Assembly (NCBI GenBank): GCA_036867785.1
Contig: CP145426.1
Location: 310,001-374,000 of the forward strand
DNA: 64,000 nt
Direction of reading: 5' to 3'
Source: Plasmodiophora brassicae
Taxonomy: Eukaryota
Each line of letters starts with the position of its first letter. Positions within the stretch are counted from its first letter, which is position 1. The notes beneath the pieces are model-generated. The model had not been told where the DNA came from and made no database searches. It saw nothing but the letters and a program-made list of their open reading frames with translations. The position numbers and the translations under genes were made by a program. Below, piece by piece: positions 21,263-27,981 of this stretch.

Positions 21263-21405
21263 GCTGCCGCACCCGTCCCCAAACAGTGGCCGCCGCCGCC
21301 GCCGCCGCCGCTCAGCACTGCAGCCCCGCCCCTATTCTCCATTTTTTGGTTGGCCGACGCTGGAGCCGCGAACCAGGTCACCTCGTGGGGACTAGGGGTG
21401 GGCAC

Positions 21406-21565
21406 GGTCCGGTCCGGGACCGGTCCCGGACCGGACCGCTCAGAAGTTGGACCGGACCGGACCGGACCGAGCAGTGTAACGTAAAGGACCGGACCGGACT
21501 GGACCGATCAAGTCTCGGACCGATAGGACCGGGACCGCAGTCTCAGGACCGGTCCTGTACCGACC
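21406..21565. repeat. Left subterminal (GGACC/GGTCC)n array of the hAT element
   Basis: Repeated pentamers in both orientations, as in hAT transposase-binding subtermini. Confidence 0.85.
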
Positions 21566-21814
21566 GCCATTGACGTTGTATTATGGGGCGTGGAACCGCC
21601 TCTTCAATGAACTATGACAACAGTATAATGTTGACCGTTGAACTTATATTGGTCGTTTTCATCCAAAATGAAATTTTCTGCGTCAGTTGACAGCCGTGGA
21701 TCCAAGTATCGCGACGGCATTTTTTTGACTGGTCAGGATCGCTCCGGATCATCACCAAACTCCGTACGTCAGCCTGCGATCAGCGCGCTCAGGTTGCCAG
21801 CTGTTCGACCAGCG

Positions 21815-22888
21815 ATGGCGTCGTCTGGACCTGGGGATAGTGGATCAACCGCCAATGAGATCCTCGAAGGAGACGATCGTGTTCATGTCACACTTGACGT
21901 GATTGTGAAACCGTATGTAAGCATACAGCCGCGGAACACGTTGTATCACGTTCTAGGCCAATTCGACGTCGAAGTGGCCACCGTTGGCGACTTTACAGAC
22001 GCCGTACTTGGTCTCGTTCAAGAAAACGTAGACGGCCTGGCTCGCAAGTCATCTGACGACGACTCGACGTATATACTTGCTAAGGAGACCGTAACGTTAA
22101 CGTCACTGGACCAGTTTGTTGCCATCAAACACAACAATCACTTCTACGCCTTCCACCGTCCACATGGCGAGGATCACCGAGATCCAATGCGTACCCCAAC
22201 TGTTGTGCTAACGTTCAAATTGAAGTTAGTCACTGAATGTTGTTCTTGGCATACAGGCATAACCAAGGACACGCTTAACCGCTGGAGTAAGGACGTCCCG
22301 AGTCTATTCATTTATCAGTACGGGAAAGAGCTGCGAAACGCATCGGACTTCAAGAAGTTTCAAGCGTCTGTGTTCTCGGCTCCGCAGTTGGACCGTGCTC
22401 GCGCCGCTGCCGATGAACAAGTGAGAGCGATCGAACGCCAACTGAAGGATCACTGGGGAACGGTATATCAATCCCAGTCAGCCAACTGGCGGATTTGGGC
22501 CAGTCGCATCGCGCGCGAGCCGGTCACACGTCGAGCTGCTTTGATCGAGGATCCGCCTCCATACGAAATCGTCCACCTCTTCGAGCACTCGCCACTACAA
22601 AATGGACCGTTGCTCACGACCCTCCGGGAAGACAATTCCACAACGCTAGCGATTCTGGACACGATGGACGATCACTTGCAAGAGTTTCAGGACTTTATCC
22701 ATCGCCAGATCGAGGCGTTTCGCGACAGCGTTGGGTGCCAGATGCGGCAGATGCGCGACACCGTGCGCCGACATCGACGAGTTGCTGAGGCGCTTAGGGC
22801 TAGTCTTCATCCCGAGGAACTTCCTGATAATCTGAACAGGCTGCAGAGGGCTCCCAATCAGAGTGATTTTGACCATGAGGATCAATAA
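21815..22888 (+). CDS. Transposon-associated protein of unknown function with C-terminal coiled coil
   Basis: Long intact ORF with a probable in-frame 66-nt intron (about 22191-22256); core DRARAAA..LKDHWG..WRIWASRI..PPP; heptad-rich C-terminus. Confidence 0.75.
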   Translation: MASSGPGDSGSTANEILEGDDRVHVTLDVIVKPYVSIQPRNTLYHVLGQFDVEVATVGDFTDAVLGLVQENVDGLARKSSDDDSTYILAKETVTLTSLDQFVAIKHNNHFYAFHRPHGEDHRDPMRTPTVVLTFKLKLVTECCSWHTGITKDTLNRWSKDVPSLFIYQYGKELRNASDFKKFQASVFSAPQLDRARAAADEQVRAIERQLKDHWGTVYQSQSANWRIWASRIAREPVTRRAALIEDPPPYEIVHLFEHSPLQNGPLLTTLREDNSTTLAILDTMDDHLQEFQDFIHRQIEAFRDSVGCQMRQMRDTVRRHRRVAEALRASLHPEELPDNLNRLQRAPNQSDFDHEDQ

Positions 22889-22890
22889 AT

Positions 22891-24088
22891 TTATTCGAAT
22901 CCGGCCTCCGTCATGCGATTGGTGATGTCCTTGTAGGCGACGCCTGGATTGAACTTTCCGTTTGCGCCAAACCCACATTTCTTGAACAGACCTCTCATAT
23001 CATATCTCCGAAACTTCTTGAGTTCCGTTAAGATTACAACAGGGAGGTCCTTCGGTTTGACATTGCCTTCAGCATACCAACGCCTAAGGCTTTTCTTGAC
23101 AAGACCGAACACAATCTCAATCGGGTTGAACATCGGACAGTAGGCTGGCAGGAAGATGGGAATGATGCCGAGATCCCGTAGGTACTCGACTATCGTATGA
23201 TGGCAATGTATCCTGGCTCCATCCATGATCCAAACCGATTGCCGCCCAGGATGCTTCTGAACTCGGCCGGACAGAGCATGCTCACGGACGCATTCGACAA
23301 ATTTCTGACGATCGAACGTGCCCTCTGTGAGAAATGTGCCTTCCAACCCATCACATCCGATGAAGCACAACAACGAGCTACGCGGCCTTCTGACGAATTC
23401 GCCTCTGAAGAGCAGTTCCTGGCCCTGCATAACGCATGTTAGGGTCCTGTATACGGATAACGTTGGGGAACTCGTCGACAGACCTTAAGCGCATAACCCT
23501 TGCGACGTAGCATGTCCCGGTTGTCGAGGCCGAACTCGTCAAGAAAGCACAGGCTGGAGTGGGTCCAGTCGATAGCGTTGAGTTCCTCGAAGAATCGGAC
23601 GATGTCTGCTTCCTTGATCTGGATGGCTCGACGGACAATGAGCTATTCAACAGTAAGCCGAAACTGATAACCCATTCCTGTTCGAGTCGTACCTTTCGAG
23701 TAAAGCCGTATTCGCGAAGTATGCGCCAGATCGTGCTCAAACTGATGTCGTTCTTCCAGTTGATTTCGAATGCCAGCTTGGCTTCGTCAAGAAAGGACAA
23801 AGGGTTGGCGAGGAAGTAGTCCCTTATCCATTCGCGGTGTTCAGGCGTGTACTTCCGCTGCGACTCTGTTGCCTTACGGGATACGGCACCGGTGCGCTCG
23901 TACCGCTCGATCCATCTGCCGATCGTCGATGGCGCCTTGCGATACAAAAGGGCTATCTGATTCTGCTTGAGGCCGATGAAATAGTAGGCGTACAGCGCAT
24001 GCAGTTTGGTGTTCTCTGTAGCATGTTGGCTTTCAATTGCTTCGGACACGTGTACACCATGAGCGGCCGCCATCTCCAACGCTGGCAC
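22891..24088 (-). CDS. IS630/Tc1-mariner superfamily DD34E transposase (3 exons)
   Basis: N-terminal HTH (IALLYRKAPSTIGRWIERY; ISLSTIWRIL); FLDE; IMDGARIH; LPAYCPMFNPIE with 34 residues between D and E. Two GT-AG introns restore the frame. Confidence 0.9.
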
Positions 24089-24547
24089 CTACGCGCTTTG
24101 CAATAATTTTGTAACTGAAAAAGAGGGAGCACGACGCCACAGATCACATCTACAACCTTGAACGGGCGTTACATCGTCTGCTCGCGCTCGTGCAATCCAA
24201 ATCAGGTATAACAACTAGTCTCAGGTCAACCACTACCGAACAGGACACGATTGCGAAGACGGTTGTTTCTCGAGCTCCGTTTAATTGATCAGAATCGCCG
24301 CTACGTATCTTCTCTACCTGCTTGACTGAAAGATTGCCACATCCCGTCCCTATATCTTCTGGAAGCTACAGGTTTCAAGTCAAACCAGCCGAGCAAGCGC
24401 GCTCGCGATAGTTGGGCACCAACAATCGCGAAAAAAATGCGTGGCGACGGTTGATAGTTGGGGCGATTGCATTTCGGACGGCAATCGCAATACTTACCAT
24501 TTGGCACCAAAATAAGTATAAGTTCAACGGTCAACATTATACTGTTG

Positions 24548-26576
24548 TCATAGTTCATTGAAGAGGCGGTTCCACGCCCCAAGCTTCATGTGCATCTCCA
24601 CGGTAAGTGGGTCGAGCGAGCTCCGGTCTGGGCCGATAAGGTCGCCCGACTCGGAAAATATGCATTCACAGGGCACTGAGCTGCCCTGGATCACGAATAC
24701 GTCTCGAGCGAGCCGGCTGATTGTGGGAAAGCGCTCCTCATGCGCTTTCCACCACTGCAGGATATCTTTGCAGGACCTGTCGGCGCGAGCGGTCATGAGG
24801 TAGAAGTCATCGACCTCGTCGTCTTTAGCCGCCTGATCTCCTTCGGCCTCTGCAAACAGATCGAACGCGACATCCACGTCGTCTTCCTGTCGAGGCGGAG
24901 CCGCTGACTGGTAGCCGTAGTTGGCCGCAAGGGTGCCGGACAGGTGCTCCTTCATGTTCTTTGCGTCGTCGCATGCATTCGATGTTCTTGGATCGAGCAA
25001 CAGAGCCAACAGATTCAGCTTCGAGCACATGTAAGGTTCGTATTTGGTCAGTTTCGTCAGCATTGCGGTGGCCGCGCGCTTAACAGCTGGGGTCGTGAAC
25101 CCGCAAGGGCTCCTGCCCGCTGCCGTCCGCTCGCAGAGATGCTTCATGTGCTTATAAATCAGGGACTGCATCGAGATCGTCGCGTACGCCGATCCGCTCG
25201 CCGCCTTTGTGCAGTTGTACGCATCCTCCCGGAAGTCTTTGCATGACTTGAGCACCCGCCATGTCAGCGGTTTGGTCAGGTCTGCGAACGCCTCGAGCCG
25301 TGAGGAAAACCTCGCTGCGCTGATCAAGTGAACTGCGACCTTCTCGAAGGTGAACCACCGGTCTATCATGTCGAACGTTGTGTTCCACCTCGACTCGCAG
25401 TCGAGATTCGGGACGTGTATCTGCTGTTTGGCAAAACCAAACAACACGCAAGCTTCCTTGAATGTGTCCGTAAGAGCCGATGATACACGAATGACCTATC
25501 GACACCAGTATTAATTACAACAGTTACAACCAACATAGACATGAGGCACCTTTGCAAACTCTCTCAACAGAGAAATTTCCGTGCGTATGACATCTAGTGC
25601 GTCCACCACACTCCTGTGTAGGATATGACAAACGCACCGAATGCGGAATGTGCCAATTATCATCCAAGTCAAGTTGCATCTCAGACTTCAAGTAGTCCTT
25701 GACCCGAGCAACAGCGGGGGGCATTTCACCGCCGTTGTCGCTGGTGACGGCCCGCACACGCGATGCGACGTTGTACTCGTTCAACACCTTAATGATCCGT
25801 TCTGACGTTGTTAACTGGTTATGCGGGCGGGGGAAATAGCTGTACTCGACAAGAACCCGTCGAAGACGCCAGCTCAAGACAATCCAGTGCCCGGTGAGGG
25901 CGAAGCACCCTTGCATCATGCGTGATGACCACCCATCGACTGTTATAGCTAGACGCCCTGGAATTCTGTCGAGGACCACTTGAATCTTCTCGCGCGCAAT
26001 GTGGTACTGATCAACTAACGACCGCACCAATGTGCGTCTGCTAGGAAGTTGGTAGCGCGGATCAAGGGTTTGCAAGAACGACTCGAAGTACGGGCTCTCC
26101 ACAATACTGAACGCTCTCTTCTCATCGACGATCCACGCAATTAACGCTGCCAGCTGCCTTTCCCGCGTCGAATCATCGATGTCTGGGCGACGGCTGCGGT
26201 TGCTGACGTCATTGTGAGGCGCCTTTCCGACAGGTCCGGTTGCGACCGGGCGCTCGATGTCGTGCGCGTGTTGGAGATGCCTTCCCAGAGTACTATTTCC
26301 AGTGTGGGCGCCGACGGTTGTTGATTTGTCGGGTTCGCAAAGAAGGCATATGCGAAGGTTCTCGACAGATGGACTCAGGCCAAAGTATCGTTTGCCCCAG
26401 AATTCGCCTCGATGCCGTTTGCCCGTTCGTCCACAGGCAGAAATCGAAGTCGACGGACCTGATGCCAAAGGATCGGGCCCCCCTGAACTCGATGCCAAAG
26501 GATCGGGCCCCCCTGAACTCGATGCCAAAGGAACGGAGTCCCCTGAAGGTTGTGATTCCATATCTCTGGCATTCAT
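24548..26576 (-). pseudogene. hAT transposase (BED finger, DDE core, dimerization domain) with a 7-bp frameshifting insertion
   Basis: BED CLLC..LGRHLQHAH; ITVDGWS; VTSDNG; CVCH lying in a shifted frame after the cattccg/cattcgg duplication at 25637-25650; ESRWNTT; SSVPCECIFS. Confidence 0.85.
26461..26548. repeat. 30-bp coding tandem repeat (about 3 copies) in the hAT transposase N-terminus
   Basis: gatgccaaaggatcgggccccctgaactc-type unit, encoding SSGGPDPLAS. Confidence 0.85.
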
Positions 26577-26721
26577 CCAGATTAGGACAGCAACACTGAT
26601 CTAAAAGAGCCATTGTTCATACCGATGAACTGGCAGATTGCTGACGTGCTCCACGTTCCGAATTCGGACTGAATCGTGGGTAGCGGCGCAGCGCAAAGTC
26701 CAAACGGCGCGCTCATACGGC

Positions 26722-26935
26722 CATACCGCTCATGGGAACACCCGAGCCGAGCTCAAACGGTGCGTCCCTACAGCTCATGGAGACACCCGATCCGATCGAA
26801 CGAGGCGCCCCTACCGCTCATGGAAACACCCGATCCGATCAAACGAGGCGTCCCTACCGCTCATGGAAACACCCGACCCGATCGAACGAGGCGGCCCTAC
26901 CGCTCAAGATGTCATTCCCCGATCCGATCGGATCC
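26722..26935. repeat. About 42-bp tandem repeat (about 5 copies) upstream of the hAT transposase
   Basis: Units of ccctaccgctcatggaaacacccgatccgatcgaacgaggcg. Confidence 0.85.
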
Positions 26936-27160
26936 GGACCTTCAAAGACACGGCATCGTCGGGACCGGACAGTTGGGACCGGTCCTCAACGGTCCAGGAC
27001 TGAACCGAACCGGACCGCAAGTGGGACTGGACCGGACCGGACCGAAGAGCGGCCGGACCGGACCGGACCGGACCGCGAGACGAGCAAGAAGGACCGAACT
27101 GGACCGGACTGCAAAAATTGGGACCGGACCGGACCGGACCGGACCGGACCGGACCGGACC
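26936..27160. repeat. Right subterminal (GGACC)n array of the hAT element
   Basis: Dense GGACC pentamers, including an uninterrupted run at 27121-27160. Confidence 0.85.
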
Positions 27161-27981
27161 GTGCCCACCCCTCGTGGGGACGTCCGGGCCTGCACTGCGG
27201 CACTTTGCGCGTGGCTGTGCCGATCCACGCGAGCGCCTGTGACGTGGCCCATTGCGGGGTGACACGATGACGGAGCGGACGACTCGTCGCCAGCTTGAAG
27301 CCGTGCGCCTGCCCCCTTCGGTGCCCGAGCATCGCGCGCTCTGCACTGACGACGACGGGGCGCATCCTTTGATACGACGTACAGTGCCGATCTCAGAACA
27401 GGTTGGCCAGCGGTTCCTGGGCGGGATGTAAACGGCTCTGGTCCAGCAACGCAGGGTCCGTTGCGATGGTCACCACAACGTTCAACTGCATCCGGATCGC
27501 GCGCGTAATCCGCTGATTCGGAAGAGTTGCCCTGGGAGAATTGCACGTCATTAGAAGGATGCGTCCAGTGTTTCCGTGCCCACCATACCAGTGGAAGGTC
27601 ATCACATCGTTCCTGGGGACGTTCCGGGTTCGGTTTCCAGCCCGGACGAGCAGCGCCTGGCGATCGAGTTGCGACAGGTCCTACGGGTGGTGGCGGGGGC
27701 GCCTGCACAACTCAGAACAGCATCGCGGAATGTACCACGGGTTGACGAGCTGGCGTATCGTCTGACGTCGGCCAGTCCACAATACATTGCGAGTAGGTGA
27801 AGGACACCTCGCTGCCGTTTGCGTCAGACAGGCAGTAGCAGTGATGGTTGTGGCGGCGGCCGGGGCAGTGATCGCGGCGCATCGGCCAGGCCCCGACAGT
27901 CCAGCGCGGTCGCGAATGTGACGTTGTTGGCATCGTCGAAGACGCAGTCCGCGTCGGGGCGGTGCCGGTGCCGCGCCCGCA

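Follow-up and report, generated by a model that had tools for sequence, protein, structure and literature searches.

The transposon at positions 21649-24490 of the window (the whole 64-kb stretch of Plasmodiophora DNA that was analysed) belongs, judged by its sequence, to a eukaryotic IS630-type DD34E lineage of the IS630-Tc1-mariner (ITm) group with a dedicated second gene placed tail to tail with the transposase gene, and it has been active recently. We designate it family A and call the second gene the partner. Transposases of the Tc1/mariner/IS630 type are textbook single-protein systems and the basis of the Sleeping Beauty tools. The features of the locus are the following.

21393..27173, minus strand: host hAT transposon, with a BED finger, a hAT dimerisation domain and an 8-bp target duplication (21385-21392 / 27174-27181)
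21584..21648, plus strand: left arm of a 65-bp perfect inverted repeat, an inverted duplicate of hAT sequence adjoining the left TA and specific to this copy
21647..21648, no strand: left TA target-site duplication (TA on both sides in seven of eight copies, TA/AA in one)
21649..24490, no strand: two-gene IS630-type (DD34E) transposon, family A, defined by shared boundaries in eight copies and by the empty-site joint
21649..21673, plus strand: left imperfect terminal inverted repeat, starting TTGG and resembling the family C left end
21815..22888, plus strand: partner (accessory) gene, 335 aa spliced, 357 aa with the intron retained
22191..22256, plus strand: in-frame GT-AG intron of the partner, 66 nt, joint in three of four runs
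22884..22895, no strand: back-to-back AATAAA on opposite strands, containing both stops (22886-22888 plus, 22893-22891 minus)
22891..24073, minus strand: transposase gene, 357 aa, exons 24073-23693, 23642-23484 and 23424-22891, HTH region and DD34E
22933..22989, plus strand: GT-AG intron antisense to the transposase, one of four runs (X5), contig 22726-24389
23700..23759, plus strand: second GT-AG intron of the antisense read-through contig, one of four runs (X5)
24466..24490, minus strand: right imperfect terminal inverted repeat, starting TTGC
24491..24492, no strand: right TA target-site duplication, from comparison of family A copies
24517..24581, minus strand: right arm of that 65-bp repeat, native hAT sequence that comprises C-terminal codons, the stop and the 3' flank and lies outside the two-gene element

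The ends of the element were fixed by comparison of its copies. An earlier note on this DNA had drawn it as 21584..24581, bounded by perfect inverted repeats, and this had to be corrected: eight genome copies share the boundaries 21649-24490 (2842 bp here, 2847 bp in each of the five other uninterrupted copies), and the match of other full-length copies to this locus is confined to about 21647-24492. The 65-bp perfect repeat was excluded as the terminal repeats, because its right arm encodes, in frame, the C-terminus of the hAT transposase together with the stop, directly 3' of which family A inserted, and its left arm is unique to the insertion; the wrong repeats had thus led to the wrong boundaries. 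The left arm is missing from the other copies and from the empty allele, a search for a second locus carrying it found none, and it was probably made during insertion or repair. The true ends read TA/TTGGTCG...ATCGCAA/TA (slashes mark the boundaries), with short imperfect inverted ends (TTG...CAA) of about 25 bp. For families A and C, the end-alignment score at 25 bp exceeded that of all 2000 shuffles, and TA was also present at every family C end shown.

An empty-site joint (21584 to 24494) was found in two of the four sequencing runs. This empty allele and the near-identical dispersed copies show that family A has been mobile recently. In the 97% copy, the partner carries 6 synonymous and 8 non-synonymous changes and the transposase 5 and 13; there is no apparent sign of purifying selection in these counts, as expected after insertion, and they are uninformative. 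The flanks of the eight copies have only TA in common (by eye), which speaks against a partner that steers target choice through a tether to a host chromatin protein and does not enable transposition. Such steering seems highly improbable to us, even though the present copy lies within another transposon and the ubiquitin-like adaptor fold proposed below would suit tethering.

The earlier description of a spliced, intact minus-strand transposase with HTH and DD34E holds. Introns 23643-23692 and 23425-23483 were spliced out in contigs from three of the four runs compared (none is recorded as RNA, and their type, 'RNA?', is a guess), and the spliced frame is open along its 357 aa, with the triad D162/D248/E283 and 34 residues between the D and the E. 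Pfam matches to HTH_23 and DDE_3 (PF13358) were above cut-off and that to HTH_32 below it, and the match to the Sleeping Beauty profile was weak (E 0.0008). The NCBIfam model NF033545 (IS630), scanned against two Plasmodiophora transposases, gave 122.6 bits for P0198 (the 97% copy) and 112.4 bits for P0168 (family C), with a cut-off of 100. The DD34E spacing was found in 112 of 121 transposase homologues, the other 9 being unparsed. The locus thus combines the DDE_3/IS630 triad, the TA duplication, terminal inverted repeats (short and imperfect) and the N-terminal HTH, the features of ITm membership.

The partner gene runs from an ATG at 21815 to a stop at 22886-22888, in agreement with the intact plus-strand ORF of about 340-360 aa noticed before. 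Translation from the upstream first in-frame ATG is unlikely, since a 5-bp indel shortens that open frame, 417 codons here, to 400 in the other copies. An alternative donor at 22202 (55-nt intron), whose joint was present in all four runs, leads to a frameshift and a 130-aa protein. The two stops were indeed found 2 bp apart, each within an AATAAA, and these back-to-back signals are two of only five AATAAA within the window. This arrangement is not conserved: the gap is 10 bp with one AATAAA in family B and about 155 bp in family C.

Analysis of the Plasmodiophora genome revealed the convergent arrangement of partner and transposase in four lineages: family A (eight copies), B (C5:730 kb), C (three full copies and one deletion copy) and D (C18:592 kb). 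All ten intact full-length partner ORFs detected in the genome face a transposase of the same clade. Partner identity between lineages is about 21-44%, with 38% for A and B, 44% for C and D and 22-26% across these pairs; the corresponding transposase values are 62%, 69% and 41-51% (the B and D sequences compared are fragments). The grouping (A,B),(C,D) is therefore identical for both proteins, with congruent divergence, and the partner diverges much faster than the transposase. As a control, five more distant DDE transposases (about 31% identity) were inspected, and no partner lay within about 4 kb of any of them. The genome also contains 13 other partner-like matches with no transposase match nearby, of which 12 are short or broken pieces and one is a repeat-domain gene (four were profile-checked); several broken transposase pieces lacked a partner (three checked), whereas every intact transposase of this clade detected in the genome had one. 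A quick partner tree, rooted at its midpoint, has two main clades with good support; family A belongs to one and family C to the other, so that the linkage brackets the family. The central idea of the earlier note, a two-component IS630/Tc1-type element with a true partner gene, is supported by these tail-to-tail pairs and by the matched divergence it had proposed to look for. We consider the two-gene element very probable, and the linkage of both genes is likely to be general across the family.

Convergent transcription was also examined at the level of contigs. In run X5, an antisense spliced contig spans the whole transposase gene, and no transposase-sense joints were seen in that run. The convergent read-through suggested earlier thus gains plus-strand GT-AG joints inside the transposase gene, a thin record from one of four runs. 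Contig depth was higher for the partner than for the transposase in all four runs, although depth cannot rank the genes, and a contig end at 23217 was not accepted as a transcript 3' end. A partner acting as a self-limiting repressor, whose acidic tail would block the transposase at its active site or DNA-binding surface and whose antisense RNA would also restrain transposition, would be consistent with the X5 contig and with the conservation of that acidic tail. A repressor would be expected to be lost frequently, yet the clade has no intact partner-less transposase in this genome, and MuDR is reported to be insensitive to added antisense RNA (PMC3440606, in part), so that we regard repression as decidedly unlikely to be the role of the partner.

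To get insight into the partner protein, its structure was predicted (mean pLDDT 83.9 and 90.6 for the models). The predicted layout comprises a beta-grasp-like domain, a DRAGA-type linker, a helical domain with WxxWA/PP-HLF motifs, a coiled coil of about 70 residues and a D-x-D-H tail. The N-terminal domain aligned with ubiquitin-like, PB1 or UBX domains in almost every one of the 50 best rows (whole-protein model: Z 4.7-5.5 over about 75 residues at an rmsd of about 3 A; Z below 8 may reflect a common arrangement only), and Foldseek placed the PB1 of Cdc24 first (E 0.023). The structural check proposed in the earlier note therefore returned a beta-grasp-like N-terminus with middling matches, consistent with a ubiquitin-like beta-grasp domain, a fold that in itself shows no function. 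The wide structure search was swamped by the coiled coil; by sequence, nothing beyond coiled-coil noise came from the PDB. BFVD contained no match at E<=0.001, and an Atlas lead to DUF2420 was rejected for its low score of 0.78.

Nearly invariant polar residues lie at two separate sites of the partner. At the first, 125 of 131 rows have D144 and 120 of 131 have R145; in the tail, the D is retained in 116 of 118 and the H in 114 of 117. Such D, R and H residues would be just as compatible with a catalytic or metal site. A partner working as an enzyme or metal-binding factor on DNA ends or a host protein, in excision or target capture, would have a precedent in ISL2EU, whose second ORF is a YqaJ exonuclease (PMC4482050, in part). 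The motifs, however, sit in the low-structure linker and tail, no enzyme family was found in Pfam (131 members) or above the NCBIfam cut-off (four members), and the structure matches included no enzyme fold; we hold this role to be very unlikely. The median net charge of the partner domains is neutral to acidic, which makes the protein unlike a DNA-binding helper.

Beyond Plasmodiophora, the partner belongs to an unnamed family of 512 clusters at 50% identity, present in chytrids, mosquitoes and midges and visible only by a full HMM scan, as word-indexed searches gave three to four close proteins. The suggestion of oomycete relatives remains a lead, with one Atlas cluster at 0.89, a score in the range of mere leads, while the named homologues are from chytrids and Diptera. 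Partner copies in Sabethes are 99.2-99.5% identical and located on different chromosomes, and hence are not single-copy cargo. All five mosquito species named among the partner homologues were also among the transposase homologues, and one pair of records (P0077 and P0204) had an equal contig size of 4005, the sole plausible partner/transposase match among 30 (a second, at 2834, is doubtful, the sources being different). An adjacent pair was sought outside the Plasmodiophora genome and none was seen; support there comes from shared hosts, repeat-like copies and this one equal contig size. The partner motif pattern gave no true locus among the 238 matches listed from metagenome and viral contigs (profile check; positive controls worked), and exact-pattern scans of low sensitivity found no transposase relatives in viral contigs or GTDB genomes.

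Host genes of the midge and of the Plasmodiophora genome contain the same domains, as would be expected if the partner were simple captured host cargo without a role for the element. This reading is largely refuted and hardly credible: the partner stays intact and convergent at about 21% identity with divergence congruent with the transposase, its mosquito copies behave as young dispersed repeats, and the host versions are derived multi-repeat fusions without the element motifs. The refutation set in the earlier note, a single-copy host gene unlinked to DD34E transposases, was thus not borne out. Among the fusions are ZAD-C2H2 zinc-finger proteins of biting midges, in which the beta-grasp and helical domains occur three-fold; they keep the domains and lack the DRAGA motif, the coil and the tail. 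In all seven fusion proteins examined (three clusters), DRAGA was missing and the profile match stopped at the helical domain.

ZAD-C2H2 zinc-finger proteins are generally regarded as chromatin proteins. Their recruitment of the partner domains, together with the fast evolution of the partner, would fit a VANC-like adaptor that works on chromatin or against silencing, shields the expression of the element and needs no contact with the transposase; VANDAL elements pair degenerate terminal repeats with VANC (PMC6446971, in part), and the ends here are degenerate too. On the other hand, the partner has neither a basic surface, judged by net charge, nor a recognised DNA-binding fold, and its best-conserved motifs are those missing from the host fusions. 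Such an adaptor appears unlikely.

Comparison with known systems separates the family from described elements. Gambol, from mosquitoes, shares the DD34E triad and mosquito hosts among relatives; its signature, reportedly W[ILV]DEDC according to Coy and Tu 2005, was present in none of 121 transposases, and the literature passages at hand mention no second gene in Gambol. Fanzor-carrying IS630 elements and L31 (DD37E) are ITm elements with a second ORF, in the former a TnpB/RuvC nuclease; the partner showed no Pfam match to RuvC/TnpB (131 members), and its predicted fold is a beta-grasp-like domain, helices and coil. The IS630-like DD34E branch of ITm shares the TA duplication, the HTH + DD34E transposase and the NF033545 match, but ITm elements usually have one gene (PMC13469147, in part), whereas this family has a conserved second gene, short, strongly imperfect TTG ends and a spliced transposase. 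L31 differs in its DD37E transposase (PMC7325037, in part) and Sagan in a long insertion between the second D and the E (PMC3164196, in part), against the DD34E spacing here. Dici, a DD34E element of Diutina yeast with three CDS, is likewise an ITm element with several ORFs and shares the TA duplication and the shortness of the terminal repeats; its ends start CAGTCGGT, its transposase has 432-478 aa, the additional ORFs correspond to a protein of 143-146 aa and to a relic of a transposase, and its fungal relatives are single-gene (PMC13469147, in part). In contrast to the CA-starting repeats and the CDS3 relic of Dici, the present element has TTG ends, a 357-aa transposase and a partner without a transposase or homeodomain match. 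The ciliate Tec and TBE are DD34E elements with extra ORFs, but they differ by having three ORFs, by encoding a recombinase or zinc-finger protein and by terminal repeats that are about 700 bp long or telomere-tipped (PMC7325037, in part), compared with two genes, ends of about 25 bp and no recombinase or zinc-finger Pfam domains here. PIF/Harbinger, Pangu and ISL2EU (PHIS) also have two ORFs, tail to tail in Ectocarpus Harbingers; they differ in an IS5-type transposase, 3-bp or AT duplications and a Myb/SANT or YqaJ partner, domains that are not found here.

The closest working analogy is maize MuDR (mudrA/mudrB), with two convergent, alternatively spliced genes, antisense read-through (PMC3440606, in part) and a helper of unknown biochemistry, mudrB, apparently required for integration (PMC6446971, in part). 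MuDR belongs to the Mutator superfamily, with 8-11-bp duplications and long terminal repeats, and Pfam suggests no homology. By this analogy, the partner may be a transposase-binding helper or regulator, the reading we favour while placing it somewhat short of even. From established ITm chemistry, the HTH+DDE transposase would bind the short imperfect ends, excise the element and insert it at TA. The partner would be a non-catalytic factor acting by protein contacts: it would oligomerise via the coiled coil, grip the transposase with the element-specific DRAGA motif and the acidic D-x-D-H tail, contact a host factor or itself through the ubiquitin-like domain, and so assemble or license the transpososome on asymmetric ends, in some way as mudrB does for MuDR. 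A second, RNA-level brake is likely, in which antisense partner read-through over the transposase gene would combine with the frameshifting donor that diverts some partner RNA.

In the clubroot pathogen, family A is a mobile, insertion-polymorphic element. The literature search found no description of it or of its partner; Repbase, Dfam, TEfam, supplements and subscription journals (the Gambol, Hiker and L31 papers) were not covered, and a prior database entry is quite possible. Tentatively, and with the chances against it, the lineage could be an undescribed eukaryote-wide ITm family (a rhizarian, chytrids, Diptera, perhaps oomycetes), obligately two-component with a ubiquitin-fold/coiled-coil subunit and tolerating asymmetric ends, whose helper domain was domesticated at least twice, including in insect ZAD zinc-finger proteins. 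A large unnamed family, whose members in mosquitoes, chytrids and the clubroot pathogen are at present annotated as ordinary hypothetical genes, gains an origin, and so does the repeated domain of the midge zinc-finger proteins. Family C, with intact, intronless pairs, is suited to the with/without question that is still open for mudrB. A widespread lineage keeping a second protein would reveal a new way to build or control the Tc1/mariner/IS630 transpososome.

The ends of the two-gene element were set by comparing its copies in the P. brassicae genome, and the features concerned are as follows.

21649-24490: two-gene element of family A, 2842 bp (2847 bp in the other uninterrupted copies), delimited by comparison of genome copies
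21584-21648 and 24517-24581: perfect 65-bp inverted repeat
21393-27173: hAT element around the two-gene element, with an 8-bp duplication

A search of the organism's own genome returned 23 matches. They include seven additional copies, five of them uninterrupted and two interrupted, and family A comprises eight copies. In the copy alignment, the matching of all other copies breaks off near 21647 and 24492, and TA lies on both flanks in seven of the eight. The boundaries proposed in the earlier note (21584 to 24581) were therefore wrong. The actual termini start TTG and form short, imperfect inverted repeats; at 25 bp they outscored each of 2000 shuffles, and the left one is similar to that of a diverged family. 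Across the six uninterrupted copies, variation amounts to one 5-bp indel and 8 substitutions. With these corrected ends, the element is a genuine two-gene transposon of the IS630 type that has moved recently. A MITE-like derivative of roughly 380 bp (locus L099, G000:C8:52968-53351) has both family-A-like ends and lies between TA sites. The two copies interrupted by inserts are located at G000:C7:842.7-849.4 kb (L096), where the insert measures 3.9 kb and contains retrotransposon-like ORFs, and at C15:674-684 kb (L097, L098).

The element lies within the hAT element, immediately past the stop codon of the hAT transposase. The perfect inverted repeat noticed earlier does exist, but it belongs to this insertion site and was ruled out as the element's termini: copies match only within ~21647-24492, and its right arm consists of in-frame final codons of the hAT transposase gene. 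No second location was found for the left arm, an inverted copy that is missing from the empty allele, seen in two of four runs as contigs joining 21584 directly to 24494. An inverted 65-bp duplication of target DNA (21584-21648; junction 24491-24494) accompanies the insertion, and we infer that it arose during insertion of the element or repair. The empty allele differs from the right junction by one base, hinting at a repair or excision footprint. The hAT element is single-copy, with a BED finger, ACCGG-type subterminal repeats and 43-bp and 30-bp internal repeats, and lies just upstream of a GPI-transamidase (Gaa1) gene. Elsewhere in the window, two tandem, near-identical ankyrin-repeat genes (55125-56600 and 57645-59129, minus strand), a class reported as expanded in P. 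brassicae, are flanked on both sides by plus-strand genes (52548-54212 and 60213-62210) in which a bacterial-type solute-binding domain is fused to a class-C GPCR-like 7TM segment.

Gene structures were derived from contigs of four runs, each belonging to a different study; the RNA type of the runs is a guess, and the contigs were taken as spliced RNA because GT-AG joints are present. Two minus-strand introns of the transposase gene are joined in three of the four runs, leaving an open product of 357 aa with HTH and DDE_3 domains and catalytic residues D162/D248/E283, in agreement with the intact, spliced HTH+DD34E transposase first proposed; P0198, its close relative from a 97% copy, scores above the IS630 cut-off. 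The plus-strand partner gene has a 66-nt in-frame intron (three of four runs; 335 aa) and an alternative splice donor, used in all four, which shifts the frame and yields a 130-aa product. Public proteins identical or nearly so to the partner ORF come from P. brassicae, the agent of clubroot. As first described, the two stops (22886-22888 for the partner, 22893-22891 for the transposase) are 2 bp apart, each inside an AATAAA, an arrangement confined to family A among the families compared. Convergent read-through, also suggested in the earlier note, was found in one run only: a single contig of run X5 begins within the partner gene, reaches 24389 and shows two GT-AG joints of plus-strand orientation within the transposase gene; minus-strand joints were not recorded in this run. 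Antisense read-through across the transposase gene is directly evidenced by this contig, in 1/4 runs.

The convergent arrangement is present in four lineages of the genome, families A to D. Families B and D are each represented by one broken copy, and family C by three copies of 2485 bp, whose genes have no introns, plus one deletion copy. Identities pair (A,B) and (C,D) for partner and transposase alike, B and D being fragments, in keeping with joint movement of the two genes within this genome. A transposase faces each of the ten intact, full-length partner ORFs, and partner copies on different chromosomes of Sabethes are 99.2-99.5% identical, as expected of young transposon genes; a single-copy host gene unlinked to DD34E transposases is thereby contradicted, and that the partner is mere cargo is extremely improbable. 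The genome also holds 13 partner-like matches for which no transposase match lies nearby: 12 are short or broken, and one is a host gene with repeat domains. Several broken pieces of transposase likewise lack a partner. Of five DDE transposases that are more distant, none has a partner within about 4 kb.

A profile of three partners (E<=0.001, 50% clustering) retrieved 512 representatives, of which the best 150 were used. Among 30 members examined for host, the last 10 being selected on the tree as probable insect sequences, were the chytrids Terramyces, Irineochytrium and Phlyctochytrium, Culicoides midges and five mosquito species; oomycetes gave a weak Atlas lead only. In a quick partner tree of 106 rows, restricted to 280-520 aa, families A and C fall one in each of the two main clades, and therefore the linkage seen in P. 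brassicae brackets the partner family. At E<=1e-20, 169 relatives of the family-C transposase were found; of these, the best 120 are mostly 42-50% identical to it and include the same five mosquito species, more mosquitoes, Bradysia and one chytrid. DD34E spacing occurs in 112 of 121 transposases. Among those best 120 of 169, identities of 42-50% across a rhizarian, flies and chytrid fungi (P0168-P0287) are suggestive of cross-kingdom horizontal transfer of these transposases.

Pfam showed no family common to more than two of 131 partner members, consistent with the earlier impression of no nameable domain. Two confident predicted models show, in order, an N-terminal mixed domain, the DRAGA linker, a small helical domain (WxxWA, PP-HLF) that in family C spans residues ~126-207, a coiled coil of ~70 residues and a D-x-D-H tail. 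In structure comparison the N-terminal domain consistently resembles ubiquitin-like, UBX, PB1 and RBD beta-grasp domains at Z of only 4.7-5.5, so that a beta-grasp fold is likely, with no function implied. The protein is neutral to acidic in net charge, and the polar residues that hardly vary are D144, R145 and the D and H of the tail. That the partner is an enzyme appears improbable, and a targeting factor more so. Partner domains also occur fused in host genes: Culicoides has ZAD-[domain x3]-C2H2 proteins, and P. brassicae a multi-repeat gene. The DRAGA, coil and tail motifs look specific to the element's job, since all seven fusions examined are without DRAGA and their profile matches stop before coil and tail. 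In ZAD zinc-finger proteins P0056, P0082 and P0160 (including Culicoides), the central region is three repeats of partner domains. The host gene at G000:C4:513464-515167 (P0107/P0162 cluster) has three tandem partner beta-grasp domains and one helical domain; no transposase match lies near it, and it appears to be a second domestication.

Its triad, TA duplication, HTH and inverted ends place the element in the IS630-Tc1-mariner (ITm) superfamily. The Gambol signature W[ILV]DEDC occurs in none of 121 transposases, and by this signature the element is presumably not Gambol; an identity as Fanzor carrier was rejected. Comparison with the respective reports set it apart from Dici (PMC13469147), Tec/TBE (PMC7325037) and Sagan (PMC3164196), and two-ORF PHIS elements have partners of other kinds (PMC4482050; PMC12477816). 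The accessible text of PMC3212995, PMC5718144, PMC11544213, PMC8533490 and a P. brassicae pangenome preprint (10.64898/2026.10.14.759018) makes no mention of such an element. Searches of the open-access literature turned up no description, so a prior entry in a database such as Repbase, Dfam or TEfam is quite possible. Our working analogy for the partner is maize MuDR, which likewise has two convergent genes and antisense read-through, together with alternative splicing (PMC3440606), and whose mudrB is apparently needed for integration (PMC6446971).

Because of established ITm biology, the DD34E transposase would move the element by cut-and-paste at TA. For the partner, we tentatively favour, with somewhat under even confidence, a non-catalytic helper or regulator: it would oligomerise through its coiled coil, use DRAGA and the acidic tail to grip the transposase, and help or license assembly on the asymmetric ends, while antisense read-through and unproductive splicing may act as an RNA-level brake. 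An anti-silencing factor is an unlikely alternative reading, and a repressor slightly less likely again. The partner represents a large, unnamed protein family with the behaviour of a transposon gene, and one that has undergone domestication.
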